Below, piece by piece: positions 17,168 through 30,157 of a stretch of 35,122 bases of DNA. A program made the translations under genes and the position numbers. The notes beneath the pieces are model-generated. The model did not search any database and had not been told where the DNA came from. It was given only the letters and a program-made list of their open reading frames with translations. Within the stretch, counting starts at the first letter, position 1; each line of letters begins with the position of its first letter. The DNA comes from a virus (Duplodnaviria > Heunggongvirae > Uroviricota > Caudoviricetes), in IMG/VR virus record IMGVR_UViG_2713896901_000010; one strand, 5' to 3'.

Positions 17168-17460
17168 TCCTGTTCACTGGCCTCTTTGGCCATCTTCAAA
17201 TACTGTTCAGGGCAATGCGCCATAACGCGCTGAAACAGTTCCAGCGCCAGATTGCGTTGCCCCTCATTAAATGCCATTGCCATAGCGTCCATCGGTGAGA
17301 TAGCGGAAAACACACGGCCTTTCTCCAGCACCGACCAGACAACGCGACGCCCCTGTTCACTGCTCATGACAAAGCGAATGTCATCAATTTCACGCTGTGC
17401 CATGTCACGTTGCTTACGGGCGTTTTCTTCTTTCAGTTGATCGTCTTCGTAATCTGTCAT
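17164..17460 (-). CDS. hypothetical protein (98 aa)
   Basis: ATGA-type overlaps with portal stop and scaffold start. Confidence 0.45.
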   Translation of the reverse strand: MTDYEDDQLKEENARKQRDMAQREIDDIRFVMSSEQGRRVVWSVLEKGRVFSAISPMDAMAMAFNEGQRNLALELFQRVMAHCPEQYLKMAKEASEQE

Positions 17461-19136
17461 TGTGATTGCCCACCCTGACCACTAACTGCATTCGCCATAG
17501 CTGACAAAACACTCGGATCCGAAGTTTTAGCTTCGCTTAGCGTCTTGGCACCCTGTGCCGCCGCCATCCCCATCGCCATCATTTGTTGCTGCTGTTGTTG
17601 CTGTGCCCGTTGCTGGCGAGCCTGCTCAACCTGTTCCTGCGGAACAATGACGGTTGGAGACACTCCGGACATATCAGCGAATGCATCGATCGCCTGATCA
17701 ACGTTGAGTTTGTCGAGAGCTTCTGGTTTCGCTTGCGCAAGTTGACCAATGAAGTTGACCGTGGATGCCAGACTAGACAGGCCGATAGACTTCTGCGCCT
17801 GAGCCATGACGGAAATGTATTCGACCTTCAGGGGCATACCTTCCATCGCGTCAGGCGGTGGCGGCAGCATGTTTTTACGCACCATCATCGAGAAAGCGCG
17901 GTCAATGAGAGGATTAAGACATTCGTCGTTCAGACGCTCCAGAACCGGCCCCAACATCAGAAGTTTTTCTTCTTTCATTTCGATCACCGCTTCAACAGGC
18001 ATCGAGCGGGTATTGATGTTCTGCAACATCATGAACAGATCGACAAAGTAGGCGCTGTTAATGATTTGACGAGTGTCCTGAATGTCTGCCACCAAATCTG
18101 CTGTACTGGGGTTAACCAGATAAGCAGGCCTGAAACCATCCTGACCAGTAATCTGATCGATATACGTGATGTCGCCAGGAAGAAGGGAGGCACGCTGATT
18201 CTTGAGGGAAGTCGGAGCAACCATCGGCGGATTGGTGGCTTTATCAATCAACTGCGACTTGCGCTTCTGGAGAAGCTGCAATGCCTTAACAGGTCCAAGC
18301 GCCAGCATACCCGGGCATGATGATCCATAAACATCTTCGCCGTTAACTTCCCAGCGCGGAGCCATAATTGGAAACTCATCGAATCCGGACTCACGCAACA
18401 ACTTGTCGTTATCGCCACCAACCTCGTAATAAACCGATTTGAATGGCTTGTTCTTGCTATCCAGCTTCGATGTATCGCGGTCAATGTTCGGGTAAACCGA
18501 ATGCATCACTTCAATCCACTTCTCGTAGGTGCCGCTTTCCCACATGCTTTTTACGGATTCGCTGACGTTATTTAGTCCGAATTCCTGAACAAGCTGACGA
18601 ACAGTCATAGAGAACTTACGAAAACAGGTGTCCACACTGCCACGAGGTGAGTTAGCCAGGTAGTAACTTCCTATCGGGAATGGCATTGTACGAATGATGT
18701 CCTCGTCATCCTCCAGCACCGCCATTGCGCCAGTGCTGTATGTGCCGAGGCTTCCGTATAACTGCGGCAGCGACTGATAGAGATTCGACTTATTGAACAT
18801 ATCGTTCATGCGGTTCTGCACCGCCTCAAGCCACAACTTAACAGGGCCATAATCCATCATTTCAGGATCTGGCGTAGCCAGGCGAAACCACGGACGCGCG
18901 GGGCTTGTGATGCCAGACATCATGCCGCTGGCGAGAGTACGCGCCGCCATAGTCCCGGTCGAATCAATAATGCGTGTATTGCGTCGATCGTTACGGTTGA
19001 CCTCAGAAGTCAGAAAGCGGGAACCACGCGGGTTGATGTAATCACTCAACTCGCGCCAGTGCGGCTCGAACGACTGACGCTCGCTTTCAAGTTGTGCGAA
19101 CTGTTTGTTCAATCGCTCTTTAGTTGTTTCCGCCAT
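17457..19136 (-). CDS. portal protein (559 aa)
   Basis: ATG 19136 with GGAG 8 nt upstream; size and position after terminase typical for portal; Gln-rich C-terminus. Confidence 0.85.
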   Translation of the reverse strand: MAETTKERLNKQFAQLESERQSFEPHWRELSDYINPRGSRFLTSEVNRNDRRNTRIIDSTGTMAARTLASGMMSGITSPARPWFRLATPDPEMMDYGPVKLWLEAVQNRMNDMFNKSNLYQSLPQLYGSLGTYSTGAMAVLEDDEDIIRTMPFPIGSYYLANSPRGSVDTCFRKFSMTVRQLVQEFGLNNVSESVKSMWESGTYEKWIEVMHSVYPNIDRDTSKLDSKNKPFKSVYYEVGGDNDKLLRESGFDEFPIMAPRWEVNGEDVYGSSCPGMLALGPVKALQLLQKRKSQLIDKATNPPMVAPTSLKNQRASLLPGDITYIDQITGQDGFRPAYLVNPSTADLVADIQDTRQIINSAYFVDLFMMLQNINTRSMPVEAVIEMKEEKLLMLGPVLERLNDECLNPLIDRAFSMMVRKNMLPPPPDAMEGMPLKVEYISVMAQAQKSIGLSSLASTVNFIGQLAQAKPEALDKLNVDQAIDAFADMSGVSPTVIVPQEQVEQARQQRAQQQQQQQMMAMGMAAAQGAKTLSEAKTSDPSVLSAMANAVSGQGGQSQ

Positions 19137-19150
19137 TTCAATGACTCCGG

Positions 19151-19357
19151 TTACTGACCAAGCAGCGTTTTACCGCTGGTATTAGCGGTTGATGTGTCGC
19201 CATGAGAACCGGTAAGCAGCGTAGAACTACGACCAGCAGCAGCGCGACGGCGACGTGTTTCTTCGTCGCGGGCATCAACAACGGCGGCATCCTGCTCCTG
19301 TGGTGCTGCCTGAACTTCTGGTGTTGCTGGCACTGATGGTGAGCTACCCATGCACAT
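19151..19357 (-). CDS. small hypothetical protein (68 aa) upstream of portal
   Basis: ATG 19357 preceded by GGAGTCATTGAT, almost identical to the portal initiation region. Confidence 0.4.
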   Translation of the reverse strand: MCMGSSPSVPATPEVQAAPQEQDAAVVDARDEETRRRRAAAGRSSTLLTGSHGDTSTANTSGKTLLGQ

Positions 19358-19447
19358 ATCAATGACTCCGTACGCAATTAAATTATTACCAATTTAACCA
19401 CATATGATTTATTTATCGTAGAAGGTTGACATTTGACGCGTGAATTA

Positions 19448-19462
19448 TTACCTTTCAGGTAA
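19448..19462. promoter_or_regulatory. operator dyad TTACC-N5-GGTAA (site C)
   Basis: ttacc tttca ggtaa, with TTGACA at 19426-19431. Confidence 0.5.
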
Positions 19463-19784
19463 CCAAAGAGCTCATTCCGGTTACTAACCTGACTGGCTTG
19501 TCGTTAAATTGAACAGGTGGAGTGAGCTTTTATTTTGAGCAGTACGGCGTATGGCACATGCGACGATAGCGGTCTGGATACGTTTAAGGGGCACCCTCCC
19601 TTGCTCGGGCAAACGAACCAGGTAGCCGGAATGTGCAAGTCGAGCGGTTTTATTCCGCGCACGGGGATTAACCATCCCGGCGATTCGGTGTGACGCCTCG
19701 GAAGAGACGAGGGTACAACGATGAGAGCATTTATGGAGCCGCGACAAAGTGTGGCGCCTTAACAGGCTAAGTGCTCTCAGCGTT

Positions 19785-19861
19785 GTGGCATTAGCTCAGT
19801 TGGACAGAGCAACCGCCTTCTAAGCGGTTGGTCGCAGGTTCGAATCCTGCATGCCACGCCA
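19785..19861 (+). tRNA. tRNA-Arg (anticodon UCU), phage-encoded
   Basis: Manual cloverleaf: acceptor GTGGCAT/ATGCCAC, U8, D-stem GCTC/GAGC with GG in loop, anticodon stem ACCGC/GCGGT, loop CUUCUAA, T-stem GCAGG/CCTGC with TTCGAAT loop, discriminator G, encoded CCA; differs from E. coli argU as I recall it. Confidence 0.9.
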
Positions 19862-19904
19862 GAATCACGCCTAAGGACCGTGATGCCAGAAGTTCCAGGT
19901 GCTT

Positions 19905-19946
19905 GGCGGTGATGGTTTCCCTTGAAGGACTATCACCGCCCTTTTT
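19905..19946 (+). terminator. hairpin terminator downstream of tRNA
   Basis: ggcggtgat...atcaccgcc 9-bp stem, long loop, then CTTTTT. Confidence 0.5.
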
Positions 19947-20118
19947 ACAGCAGGACGCCATTGCGATGACTTCATGCTGTAAACCCGTACAGCCACGGAA
20001 GGCATAACTCATTGCTTCCAGTTCGCCCTGTTCGCCGGGTATTTTTTTACTTGAATTTTACCCTCAACAAACCAACATAGAACTTGGCATTTGCCATAAC
20101 TTTCACAAGGAGTCAGCC

Positions 20119-20418
20119 ATGAATGGTTGGAATAGAAAAAAGACTCAATATTTAGCTGAGTGCATCCACGAACACGAAAAAGCCGACGGAGTAACCTACG
20201 ATCCTAACGGTATGGTTAGCTACTGGAACACAAAATATAACCTCGTTCCGGCTGAACAGTTGCCAGCATTACAAAATCAGGTATCTCTCGAATTAGAAGC
20301 TCTACGCGGTGCTGAGACTAACCATGTAACAATTAGCAACATTGGTGCCGCTAAGTTTGGATTCGACTCTGTAATAGGGAATCATCTACCTAACTTCGAT
20401 CCGGAGCCAGTTAAGTAA
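20119..20418 (+). CDS. hypothetical protein (99 aa), moron between terL and portal
   Basis: ATG 20119 with AAGGAG at 6-nt spacing; opposite strand to all flanking late genes. Confidence 0.6.
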   Translation: MNGWNRKKTQYLAECIHEHEKADGVTYDPNGMVSYWNTKYNLVPAEQLPALQNQVSLELEALRGAETNHVTISNIGAAKFGFDSVIGNHLPNFDPEPVK

Positions 20419-20429
20419 TTTGCTGACCA

Positions 20430-21905
20430 TTATGCATAAGGGTCATAATCCGTTATGGCCCTTCCCTGCTGGCTTTGCTGTCCTGGTATATTTATGCGTT
20501 TCGACACCGGGAAAGCAAACGTCAGCAGTAGCGCATCGCCTTTACCCAGCGAACGCCCAAGACGCTCTTTGATATCTTCCTTCGGTTCGATAACGATTTT
20601 ACCGTCCACACGAACTTTGTACTCTGCCGCCGACAGGTCGTCTGCAGTTTCCTGGTCATCCAGCATGCCGCCCAGCCTCAGCCATGTCTTGCATGAATTG
20701 AACATCTCCCCACGCTTGTTGAGCATCTGCGGGTCAGTAGACGCGCCACCGAACGGAACAAGTTGCCATGTACGACCCCATCCGTCACCGATTGACTTCA
20801 GACCGGTTCCGTAACCGAAGTCGATGAACACCGCGTCAGCCTGGTACTGGTCTTCAAAGTCAGCGATACGCTTCGCCATAATCAGATCGTCAGTGGTCTT
20901 GTTGCCAGTCCACAGCACCTTACTGTGCAGCCCCTGCCTCAGGTATATCACCGCGTCATCAACGCCTGAGTATGCCGGGTCAACGCCGATTATCACCGGA
21001 GCATGTGCAACCTGCACAGCGGTTACCACCCGTTTCATTGCCTCGTCAGTAAGGCCGGTAGGGATAAACTGCAATTCAGATGCATCCGGGAATATGCCGC
21101 GCACACGGATTTTAACGAAGTCGCTGTCTTCCCCGTAGTCATCAACCCATTTCTGCAACTGCTGTTTGTTAGTGCCTTCCACCGTCCGGCTGTCAATCTG
21201 CGCAGTTTTCCAGCGGTGTTTATATTTGCGGAAACATTCGCGGAAACGTCCGGTGTTACGTGTAGGGTTTCCAAACGCCACCCAGATAATCTCAGTGTCT
21301 TCGTCCGTAAGCGCACCCTCAGCAACTTCCCACACCAGATCCGCAATGTTCGACGCTTCATCGAATACCACGATGATGCGTTTGCGCTCGTTGTGTAGTC
21401 CGGCGAATGCCTCAGTGTTGTGCTCAGACCAGGGGATTGCGTCAGCTCGCCACCGCTTGTCGTGCCCAGGGTCATTGCTGTACATCGCGGTAGCGGTACA
21501 GGTAAACCAGTCTTTCGTGATAGCAAGGTTCGACCACTTGATAATTTCCGGCCAGGTCTTCGTTCGTAGCTGGTTGTCGGTGTTGGCGGTCACCACGACC
21601 TTACAATCCTCGCAAGTGGACATGCCCCAGTTGATCAGCATTGAGATGAATGCGGATTTACCAATACCGTGACCAGAAGCGCGTGCCAGCATAAGCGGCT
21701 GATAGCGCGTCTCTGGATTCTGCAGGTGATCACGTATCTCTCGGAACGCATCAGCCTGCCACTGACGTGGGCCGGTAGCATGTGCCAGTTCAGTCCCCTC
21801 TTCCCCCCAAGGGAACGCATAGAGGGCATAGCCAAGCGGATCGTGAGTGAACCCTGCAATATCCTCGATTAACTGCTCTTCAGGAGATAACGCTGTATCT
21901 GTCAC
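20430..21905 (-). CDS. terL: terminase large subunit (491 aa)
   Basis: GTG start overlapping terS stop (GTGA); Walker-A-like ARASGHGIGKS near N-terminus; size and position. Confidence 0.9.
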   Translation of the reverse strand: MTDTALSPEEQLIEDIAGFTHDPLGYALYAFPWGEEGTELAHATGPRQWQADAFREIRDHLQNPETRYQPLMLARASGHGIGKSAFISMLINWGMSTCEDCKVVVTANTDNQLRTKTWPEIIKWSNLAITKDWFTCTATAMYSNDPGHDKRWRADAIPWSEHNTEAFAGLHNERKRIIVVFDEASNIADLVWEVAEGALTDEDTEIIWVAFGNPTRNTGRFRECFRKYKHRWKTAQIDSRTVEGTNKQQLQKWVDDYGEDSDFVKIRVRGIFPDASELQFIPTGLTDEAMKRVVTAVQVAHAPVIIGVDPAYSGVDDAVIYLRQGLHSKVLWTGNKTTDDLIMAKRIADFEDQYQADAVFIDFGYGTGLKSIGDGWGRTWQLVPFGGASTDPQMLNKRGEMFNSCKTWLRLGGMLDDQETADDLSAAEYKVRVDGKIVIEPKEDIKERLGRSLGKGDALLLTFAFPVSKRINIPGQQSQQGRAITDYDPYA

Positions 21906-22498
21906 TGATTGCCATCCTGACGTTCTTTGAGTCGCTTCCTGGCTGCTGCTATGCGATCAGCAATTGTCACACTCACATTAACATCCAGGCGTTCTTTGAA
22001 TGCGTTGACGTCGACGTGCTTACCAATCAGTTCGAGGTTCTTCACCTTGTCAGGCCACTTAATTTTTTTGAGGATTGTCTCTATCGAATCCTCGTTCATG
22101 TTCATGATGGTCGATGACAGATCAAAGCCGCTAAGCGTAGTGCGCCAGATTTTCGGCCACTCGCGGATTGGTTTAAGGCTCCCATCGTCGTTGAGGATGT
22201 CGATCACGTCCATCTGGTCGATCTCCACCAGGCGCATGAGAACGTAATCAGCACTGACGCGCATTCGTTTGTTGCGCTCCTCCATCAACTCGGCAATCCG
22301 TTTCTGAATGCGTTCATCGCGCATCATGACACTGGCTTTAACTGCCGCTGTATTTGGGGAGAATCCTGCGTTAATCGCTGCCTGAGTCTGGTTTTCAGGC
22401 GTTTTGATGTATGACTGGCAATAAGCCTCCTGCATTGCTGTTAGTGGCTTAAATTGCGTTGATTTGCGTTTATAGGTTTTAGGTTCAGCAGGCATCAT
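21902..22498 (-). CDS. terS: terminase small subunit (~197 aa)
   Basis: Immediately upstream of and overlapping terL; basic helical N-terminal region; likely start is the ATG pair 22498/22495 rather than table TTG 22576. Confidence 0.75.
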   Translation of the reverse strand: MMPAEPKTYKRKSTQFKPLTAMQEAYCQSYIKTPENQTQAAINAGFSPNTAAVKASVMMRDERIQKRIAELMEERNKRMRVSADYVLMRLVEIDQMDVIDILNDDGSLKPIREWPKIWRTTLSGFDLSSTIMNMNEDSIETILKKIKWPDKVKNLELIGKHVDVNAFKERLDVNVSVTIADRIAAARKRLKERQDGNQ

Positions 22499-22530
22499 AA
22501 CCACCGTGGTAATAGTTACCGTTGTGGTAA
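22498..22530. promoter_or_regulatory. tandem operator dyads upstream of terS (sites D2 and D1)
   Basis: 22516-22530 ttacc gttgt ggtaa (10/10); 22498-22512 taacc accgt ggtaa (9/10) overlapping the terS start codon and GGTGG RBS. Confidence 0.55.
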
Positions 22531-22540
22531 TAGTACCATG

Positions 22541-22567
22541 CAAAATAAAGCCGCCATAGTTGGCGGC
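22541..22567 (-). terminator. rho-independent terminator upstream of the late operon
   Basis: On minus strand GCCGCCA-acta-TGGCGGC followed by TTTATTTTG. Confidence 0.65.
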
Positions 22568-22608
22568 AGTATTCAAAACACATCAAATTCATCATGCATA
22601 ACCTACTC

Positions 22609-26974: not shown

Positions 26975-26989
26975 TTACCTCTTAGGTAA
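26975..26989. promoter_or_regulatory. operator dyad TTACC-N5-GGTAA (site E1)
   Basis: ttacc tctta ggtaa, 3 nt upstream of ATG 26971; contains the GAGGT RBS on the minus strand. Confidence 0.55.
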
Positions 26990-27017
26990 TTAAAAACCAC
27001 ATAAGACACGAAATCAA
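26989..27017 (-). promoter_or_regulatory. sigma70-like promoter TTGATT-N17-TTTAAT (minus strand)
   Basis: -35 at 27012-27017, -10 at 26989-26994, flanked by operators E1 and E2. Confidence 0.45.
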
Positions 27018-27036
27018 TAGAGTTTAGAATATTTTA

Positions 27037-27051
27037 TTACCCAACAGGTAA
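27037..27051. promoter_or_regulatory. operator dyad TTACC-N5-GGTAA (site E2)
   Basis: ttacc caaca ggtaa. Confidence 0.55.
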
Positions 27052-28983: not shown

Positions 28984-28998
28984 TTACCTTTGAGGTAC
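28984..28998. promoter_or_regulatory. near-perfect operator dyad (site F, 9/10)
   Basis: ttacc tttga ggtac. Confidence 0.35.
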
Positions 28999-29003
28999 GA
29001 ATA

Positions 29004-29031
29004 GATATGAAAAGACCGCCGGATGGCGGTC
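29004..29031 (-). terminator. tR1-like hairpin terminator after the cro-like gene
   Basis: On minus strand GACCGCC-atcc-GGCGGTC followed by TTTTCATAT. Confidence 0.5.
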
Positions 29032-29053
29032 TACAGAGGTTTGTGGCTGGATA

Positions 29054-29284
29054 TCATGAGTAGAAGAAGTATGCCAGTTCTGCTTTTGAGCGCAGCCATT
29101 GTCTTGTTTTACAGGCTTTAAAAAGCCCATTCATCAATACCTTACCTGGCATTTTGCGCTTACCTGTTAAGTGAGTCTGGATATAGTGACTCGTCGTTCC
29201 GGCTTCCTGTGCGAAGGCTTCACGCTCATCCGGAGTAAGTGCAAGCCAGTGCTTTTTGAAATCGAAATGTCCGTTATCGCTCAT
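29054..29284 (-). CDS. Cro-like HTH regulator (76 aa)
   Basis: Divergent from the repressor gene across an operator-rich region; TPDEREAFAQEAGTTSHYIQTHLTGKR has helix-turn-helix character. Confidence 0.55.
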   Translation of the reverse strand: MSDNGHFDFKKHWLALTPDEREAFAQEAGTTSHYIQTHLTGKRKMPGKVLMNGLFKACKTRQWLRSKAELAYFFYS

Positions 29285-29320
29285 AGCTATTGCCTGATAT
29301 TTATTTCAGATAATAAATAT

Positions 29321-29383
29321 TCACCCATAAGGTAACAAAAATCAAGGATAGTTACCTATGAGGTGCATTTACCTGTTGGGTAA
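29321..29383. promoter_or_regulatory. OR-like operator cluster (three dyads)
   Basis: 29321-29335 tcacc cataa ggtaa (9/10); 29352-29366 ttacc tatga ggtgc (8/10); 29369-29383 ttacc tgttg ggtaa (10/10). Confidence 0.6.
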
Positions 29384-30080: not shown

Positions 30081-30095
30081 TTACCTGGTGGGTAA
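30081..30095. promoter_or_regulatory. operator dyad TTACC-N5-GGTAA (site H1)
   Basis: ttacc tggtg ggtaa. Confidence 0.6.
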
Positions 30096-30114
30096 TTTTT
30101 TTAACTCATATCTA

Positions 30115-30143
30115 TTGACATCAAACCAGATACGCATAATTAT
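30115..30143 (+). promoter_or_regulatory. pL-like promoter TTGACA-N17-AATTAT
   Basis: Consensus -35 at 30115-30120; -10 at 30138-30143 whose last T is the first base of operator H2. Confidence 0.55.
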
Positions 30144-30157
30144 TACCTCAACGGTAA
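30143..30157. promoter_or_regulatory. operator dyad TTACC-N5-GGTAA (site H2)
   Basis: ttacc tcaac ggtaa. Confidence 0.6.

Follow-up and report, generated by a model that had tools for sequence, protein, structure and literature searches.

Near-identical translation initiation regions at the gp3-like and portal genes of a phiV10-type prophage and their probable origin by local copying

Several described systems resemble parts of the locus reported here. Canonical Shine-Dalgarno (SD) initiation regions, such as those of gp04 and gp05 in Enterobacter phage Tyrion and of p06 and p07 in Escherichia phage phiV10, place a GGAG core 8 nt before the ATG of a conserved open reading frame (ORF), and the layout is the same here. 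In phage T4, RegA-type translational operators overlap several initiation regions, and the present locus is like them in that two genes have a common sequence overlapping their SD-to-AUG intervals. Coupled genes in phage morphogenesis operons bring a stop codon close to the next start codon, as is also the case here. Short-patch gene conversion and replication template switching are general mechanisms that the locus resembles in having a patch of ~8 to 13 nt with a nearby older donor and boundaries at CGGAG and ATG. Lastly, T7 gp6.7 (Pfam PF17570), a small, injected virion protein beginning with Met-Cys and encoded upstream of the portal gene in a podophage, is a suspected analogue of the small protein considered below. 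Compared with canonical SD regions, the two sites described here appear to be functionally no different and are unusual only in being neighbors with a common non-SD spacer.

The gp3-like and portal start sites

The window, by which we mean the whole stretch of 35,122 nt of viral DNA that was analyzed, is an E. coli prophage of the phiV10/epsilon15 type (Uetakevirus). Its DNA identity is 98% with Escherichia phages phiV10 and TL-2011b and ~78% with the Salmonella phages epsilon15 and SPN1S (Uetakevirus). On the minus strand of the window, a small gene (19151 to 19357) encoding 68 amino acids (MCMGSSPSVP...GKTLLGQ), the orthologue of epsilon15 gp3 and PhiV10p06, is followed by the portal (head-to-tail connector) gene (17457 to 19136, minus strand; 559 amino acids). 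The portal protein matched Pfam PF12236 (Head-tail_con) at 1.6e-187 and phrog_332 at 1.3e-253, and the DNA of its gene was 98% identical to that of phiV10 and TL-2011b. The two genes are the first of a head-morphogenesis gene block. Upstream of gp3, toward higher window coordinates, lie ~430 nt of noncoding DNA and then a tRNA-Arg(TCT) on the other strand, beyond which are a small reverse-strand gene and the large terminase gene. At the next junction, the stop codon of the portal gene and the start codon of gp5 overlap (ATGA).

The small gene is annotated as hypothetical in phiV10, epsilon15, SPN1S, and Tyrion, and a literature look-up on it found nothing. Its product matched phrog_831 at 7.5e-36 but no Pfam family, and a comparison to solved structures returned no convincing relative, the best match (E = 0.019) being to a ribosomal protein through a low-complexity RRRR stretch. 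Third codon positions accounted for 32 of 41 substitutions relative to epsilon15, 35 of 44 relative to a Klebsiella phage, and 31 of 33 relative to Tyrion. Moreover, the N terminus (Met-Cys) and the C terminus (GKTLLGQ) were invariant in ten lineages, and the Met-Cys start was kept in all lineages compared. Because substitutions pile up at third codon positions and the termini do not vary, we conclude from codon-level comparison that the 68-amino-acid ORF is a genuine gene encoding a conserved protein.

On the minus strand, the sequence CGGAGTCATTGA(T/A)ATG ends at the ATG of both the gp3-like gene (19370 to 19355) and the portal gene (19149 to 19134), where the window reads ...gcgtaCGGAGTCATTGATATGtgc and ...gtaacCGGAGTCATTGAAATGgcg, respectively. 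The two sites are equal at 15 of 16 positions, with an exact run of 12 nt, one mismatch at −1, and then the ATG. Rereading of the minus strand confirmed both the coordinates and the letters given in a sequence-only reading of this DNA, which had reported near-identical initiation regions at the two starts, and the match was found to extend 5′ by one more base, since both sites have C ahead of GGAG. The gp3-like initiation region (19355 to 19370, minus strand) is made up of C-GGAG, the 8-nt spacer TCATTGAT, and ATG, and the portal initiation region (19134 to 19149, minus strand) of C-GGAG, the 8-nt spacer TCATTGAA, and ATG. The sites are direct repeats lying 221 nt apart, with the gp3 site upstream, and the portal region starts 1 to 2 nt past the gp3 stop codon TAA (19153 to 19151). 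A pattern search of both strands of the window, allowing up to 3 mismatches, found exactly these two sites, with neither a third copy nor an antisense or complementary partner.

By itself, a 15/16 match anywhere in 35 kb is unexceptional, with tens of such pairs expected from an arithmetic estimate. The 55 annotated gene starts of phiV10 (1485 pairs) were compared in register with the start codon, and the gp3/portal pair had the longest identical run, at 12 nt; the runner-up had a run of 10 nt that was merely an extended SD consensus, GGAGGTGAGT. When spacer probabilities were taken from the position-specific base frequencies of the other 53 phiV10 genes, given GGAG in the same register, the chance of a match to TCATTGAT at 7 or more of the 8 spacer positions was ~1.3e-4 per pair. 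GGAG occurred in that register in 9 of the 55 genes, giving 36 pairs and an expectation of ~0.005 per genome. We conclude that, because an in-register match this long is so rarely expected, the likeness of the two sites exceeds chance and calls for an explanation beyond a common SD sequence and ATG.

Distribution of the match and relative age of the copies

To the extent of ~370 loci, relatives were gathered from annotated phages, from IMG/VR viral contigs (three portal queries and one DNA pattern), and from GTDB with one genome per species. In all of the loci, gp3 preceded the portal gene with a stop-to-start gap of 13 to 15 nt. The sequence-only reading had looked to homologous phages without the upstream gene as the case that could reduce the match to chance, a comparison that is inapplicable, since the upstream gene was present in every relative found. 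Across the loci there were ~30 distinct pairs of initiation regions. About 300 loci came from E. coli and were nearly all exactly as in the window, forming a near-clonal set. Tyrion carried CGGAGTCATTGTT at gp3 and CGGAGTCATTGTC at the portal gene. The two sites had unrelated spacers in epsilon15, SPN1S, and Citrobacter (CGGAGCTATTGCT at gp3 versus GGAGTAGGCAGAG at the portal gene) and in Klebsiella (TGGAGTATCGAT versus TGGAGCGCGGAAG), and the same was true of Kluyvera, Superficieibacter, Pseudocitrobacter, Pseudescherichia, Erwinia, Providencia, and Enterobacter BUCT554; GGAGTAGGCAGAGATG is one example of an unrelated portal spacer outside the phiV10/Tyrion clade. Within lineages, the 13 nt before the two ATGs were identical at 12 positions in phiV10 and Tyrion versus 1 to 6 elsewhere. 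As background, 441 cross-lineage combinations of gp3 and portal sites from noncarriers gave a mean of 3.8 and a maximum of 9 of 13. In a neighbor-joining tree of portal proteins, all carriers of the match (the phiV10 group, Tyrion, and lineages L094 and L095) fell in one clade, and thus a single origin suffices. A pattern scan of viral contigs for the portal site of that clade (GGAGTCATTGA) revealed no new carrier lineage.

The relative age of the two copies was apparent from where each version recurs. Several lineages have GGAGT(C/T)ATTGA(A/T) ahead of gp3: an identical or nearly identical gp3 site was present in Tyrion, L226, L235, L234, and L095, and the related CGGAGCTATTGCT was present in epsilon15, the gp3 spacer of which (CTATTGCT) equals TCATTGAT of phiV10 at 5 of 8 positions. 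Lineages L226, L235, and L234 belong to a different clade and read (C/T)GGAGT(C/T)ATTGAAATG before gp3, and at two of these loci all 16 nt of the gp3 site agreed with the portal site of phiV10. L226 and L235 had CGGAGTCATTGAAATG before gp3 but GGGATCGTCATG before the portal gene, and the portal sites of this clade were either GGGATCGTCATG or GGGCAAAGGATATG. This clade, separate from that of the carriers, bore GGAGTCATTGAAATG upstream of gp3 and not upstream of the portal gene. Moreover, the portal spacers of noncarriers were alike among themselves (GGAGCGCGCAGAG, GGAGCACGCAGAG, GGAGTAGGCAGAG, and GGAGCAGGCAGAT) and unlike TCATTGA. Because the gp3-type site recurs before gp3 in another clade in which the portal spacers are unrelated, we conclude from these alignments that the gp3 version is the older, donor-type copy and that the phiV10/Tyrion clade has a derived copy at the portal gene.

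The boundaries of the replaced portal spacer were sharp. Around it, phiV10 and epsilon15 were identical at 27 of 27 nt upstream and 11 of 11 nt downstream, and the spacer itself was TAGGCAGAG in epsilon15. The elements (GTA)CGGAG and ATG were present at both sites in epsilon15 too, and the patch would thus have had microhomology on either side. With an older donor, different orthologues at the recipient position, and sharp boundaries at microhomology, the patch has the features of a short-patch duplication or ectopic conversion.

We think it probable that the ordinary ribosome-binding site of the gp3-like gene was copied onto the portal start in an ancestor of the phiV10 and Tyrion phages and that both sites are normal initiation regions. 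The change would date to the ancestor common to E. coli phiV10-like and Enterobacter Tyrion-like phages, in which gp3-site sequence would have replaced the portal spacer over a patch of ~8 to 13 bases, possibly including the base before GGAG. The simplest and most likely route would be short-patch ectopic conversion or a template switch during replication, anchored on (GTA)CGGAG at the 5′ side and ATG at the 3′ side, after which both copies would have been mostly retained but free to drift. We infer this mechanism from comparative data, and direct repeats 221 nt apart fit it without being diagnostic of it. Of the two explanations offered by the sequence-only reading, a local duplication is the one that the relatives bear out, the portal copy being clade specific and of the gp3 type and every lineage outside one monophyletic clade having an unrelated portal spacer. 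The copy event rests on one origin on the tree, and the likeness may, less probably, be an 8-nt convergence.

Function of the sites and alternatives to copying

Under a chance or convergent origin, both spacers drifted separately to A/U-rich sequence behind GGAG and their identity at 7 of 8 positions is coincidental. Only ~8 to 9 bases are informative, GGAG and ATG being required anyway, and spacers change fast across lineages. Consistent with such a reading, the other start pair in phiV10 with a common 10-nt run owes it purely to the SD consensus, and the P. vulneris portal spacer, CGATTGCAG, holds ATTG by itself. Against it stand the low expectation per in-register pair and per genome calculated above, the adjacency of the two genes, and the fact that the portal spacer of the clade is unlike its orthologous spacers yet equals a gp3 spacer found in another clade. 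We consider coincidence unlikely.

Both sites look like ordinary SD initiation regions, with GGAG followed by an 8-nt A/U-rich spacer. GGAG occupies −12 to −9 before both ATGs, which puts a purine-rich core within 5 to 10 nt of the start codon, and each start codon opens a conserved protein-coding gene. In the Tyrion record, ribosome_binding_site features are annotated at exactly these two positions. GGAG would pair with the 3′ end of 16S rRNA, and the 8-nt A/U-rich spacer would position the ATG at the ribosomal P site. From the gp3 stop codon to the portal ATG (19136 to 19134) the distance is 14 nt, with the portal SD sequence straight after the stop; the gp3/portal junction is a stop-start arrangement without overlap, unlike that of portal and gp5. 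Because the portal SD sequence adjoins the gp3 stop and all lineages preserve this spacing, portal translation is likely to be coupled to that of gp3, in which case ribosomes ending on gp3 could keep the portal site unfolded or reinitiate there.

Another explanation is that the 12 to 13 nt constitute a shared translational operator or enhancer, bound by a phage or host factor such as a repressor protein, a small RNA, or an S1-type enhancer interaction, and that gp3 and portal are thereby coregulated or produced in a fixed ratio, with selection preserving the likeness of the copies. Both copies are better kept between phiV10 and Tyrion than are the synonymous sites of gp3, both show the same A>T change at −2, and the pair is invariant in most of the ~300 E. 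coli loci, which are, however, near clonal. The distribution argues otherwise: most relatives have these two genes, identically arranged, but lack the match, and within the clade copies have drifted in L095, L094, L150, and L009. Here the second explanation of the sequence-only reading, a shared translational-control element, lost its footing, since most relatives keep both genes at 0 to 6 of 13 identities versus 12 of 13 here. The window held no third or complementary site that would indicate a regulon, and an Rfam scan of 18800 to 20500 (E ≤ 1) found only the tRNA-Arg and a spurious antisense match on the same bases. Predicted probabilities of being unpaired were 0.32 and 0.41 for the two sites versus 0.39 overall, indicating average accessibility, and no RNA structure was common to the two sites, the predicted minimum free energy folds of which differ. 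Promoter and terminator scans gave no sigma-70-like promoter and no terminator at the sites, two terminator-like hairpins being elsewhere and on the other strand. Unlike T4 RegA-type operators, the present case involves only two sites in a single clade, has no sequence likeness to a described operator, and offered no candidate for a cognate trans-acting factor. We regard a shared operator as quite improbable.

Separately, an AU/GU hairpin was predicted upstream of the gp3 site, and relatives showed one-sided changes only, which left the hairpin unsupported as an RNA structure.

A related possibility is that, within the phiV10/Tyrion clade, selection or recurrent conversion keeps the sites alike as one functional unit, which would set the ratio of the small Met-Cys protein to portal or their timing. 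Between phiV10 and Tyrion, the sites differ at only 1/13 and 2/13 positions, versus ~45% of gp3 third codon positions, and both Tyrion copies have T in place of A at −2. Were the sites one unit, it could serve as a ribosome-loading sequence or operator common to both genes as procapsid assembly begins, and its traces would be the paired A>T change in Tyrion and a divergence lower than that of synonymous sites. Together, the low divergence and the paired change may stem from the usual constraint on initiation regions, from a second conversion, or from selection for likeness. Other members have diverged. Identity of the two sites is down to 7/13 in L095 (TGGAGTTATTGAT at gp3 and CGGGGTCAATGTC at portal) and to 11/13 both in L094, where the portal SD sequence carries an A>G substitution, and in L150, where C>A has altered the gp3 spacer; in L009, T>G in the portal spacer gives rise to an in-frame upstream ATG. 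We hold active maintenance of the pair as one unit to be highly improbable.

Finally, a larger tandem duplication, in which the initiation region and gp3 were doubled and a deletion with its ends precisely at the ATG of the second gp3 and the portal ATG then removed that copy, would likewise put a gp3-type site before portal by a single origin but is very improbable indeed, as epsilon15 has the same last 27 nt of gp3 and the same sequence from the gp3 stop to the SD sequence, a second gp3, whole or as a remnant, is seen at none of the ~370 loci, and two precise events would be needed instead of one short-patch event.

The upstream leader, the T7 comparison, and meaning for the family

An alignment of 20 lineages delimited a highly conserved untranslated leader or regulatory region immediately upstream of the gp3 site (19371 to 19470, minus strand). 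The leader holds a palindrome, TTACCTGAAAGGTAA (19462 to 19448), and two GGTAATAATT repeats (19452 to 19443 and 19390 to 19381). It is the context of the donor copy and lies outside the duplicated patch. The ~110 nt upstream of the gp3 site were far better conserved across lineages than either spacer. Palindromes of the type TTACCTNNNAGGTAA (up to 2 mismatches) occurred 13 times in the window versus 0.8 expected, with clusters at 26975 to 27051, 28984 to 29383, and 30081 to 30157, and the epsilon15 record annotates the orthologous palindrome upstream of gp3 as a repressor-binding site.

The suspected analogy of gp3 to T7 gp6.7 was examined by three comparisons. The Providencia homologue of gp3 aligned to T7 gp6.7 with 37% identity over 49 amino acids (E = 0.001) in a single pairwise BLASTP comparison. 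An hhalign profile comparison of gp3 and T7 gp6.7 gave a probability of 1.5%, and PF17570 matched T7 gp6.7 at 3.4e-28 but no gp3 homologue even at E ≤ 10. Moreover, the C-terminal motif of gp3, RRRRAAAGR...GKTLLGQ, is without a counterpart in T7 gp6.7. The relation of gp3 to T7 gp6.7 is unproven.

The genes and their ribosome-binding sites are already annotated in near-identical phages, and the likeness of the spacers alone appears to be unannotated in the phage records compared. On the reading we favor, copying of the gp3 ribosome-binding site onto the portal start, the overall significance of the repeat is small. Because it would be a lineage-specific microduplication of an ordinary ribosome-binding site, the repeat should not be annotated as a regulatory element. 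It would instead be a natural example of a ribosome-binding site copied between neighboring genes, and the spacer variants of the phiV10, Tyrion, epsilon15, and Klebsiella types form a natural set for gauging the effect of the spacer on portal expression and coupling.

The gp3-like protein and the neighboring tRNA gene

The 68-amino-acid gp3-like protein, encoded on the minus strand at 19151-19357, begins with an invariant Met-Cys, carries the motif RRRRAAAGR, and has GKTLLGQ at its C-terminus; its sole match was phrog_831. Residue 52 is His in the window but Gln in all other E. coli loci. Resemblance to the T7 injected protein gp6.7 was weak (hhalign, 1.5%; BLASTP E value for the Providencia homologue, 0.001). 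A tRNA-Arg gene (anticodon TCT; 19785-19861) is located between gp3 and the large terminase gene on the plus strand, opposite the late genes, with a terminator-like hairpin after it at 19905-19940. Several related phages have this tRNA in their annotations.

A natural variant at the portal start

Three of the loci collected for comparison of the initiation regions (L009, L133, and L208) are a single IMG/VR contig, UViG_2563366988_000007. A T-to-G change in its portal spacer (GGAGTCATGGAAATG) produces an additional ATG in the portal reading frame, two codons before the usual start and just 4 nt past the Shine-Dalgarno sequence. This natural variant could shift the portal start.

The conserved leader and palindromes upstream of gp3

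The untranslated leader of gp3 (19371-19470, minus strand) was almost unchanged among the lineages compared, in which third codon positions of gp3 are approximately 45% diverged. Conserved blocks within the leader read TTACCTnAAAGGTAATAATT ... TGTCAAT ... CTACG.TAAATAA ... ATGTGGTTAAATTGGTAATAATTTAAT, and GGTAATAATT occurs twice, at 19381-19390 and 19443-19452. A 15-bp AU/GU hairpin was predicted in the leader, with only one-sided changes in relatives, and the promoter scan found no sigma-70-like promoter. The leader probably serves either for protein binding or as a late promoter.

A pattern count allowing up to two mismatches located the 15-bp palindrome TTACCTNNNAGGTAA at 13 sites in the window, compared to 0.79 expected, a number reached in 0 of 100 shuffles. 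One copy lies approximately 105 nt upstream of gp3 (19448-19462), and further copies are at 290, 1291, 22516, 26975, 27037, 28984, 29160, 29321, 29352, 29369, 30081, and 30143. One is inside the 5′ end of a 224-amino-acid open reading frame (21902..22576), presumably the small-terminase gene, directly upstream of the large terminase gene; apart from that copy and the gp3-upstream copy, clusters occur at approximately 27.0, 29.0 to 29.4, and 30.1 kb. Because the epsilon15 GenBank record labels the orthologous palindrome before gp3 a repressor-binding site, the copies look like an operator set of the phage repressor that would extend into the late region.
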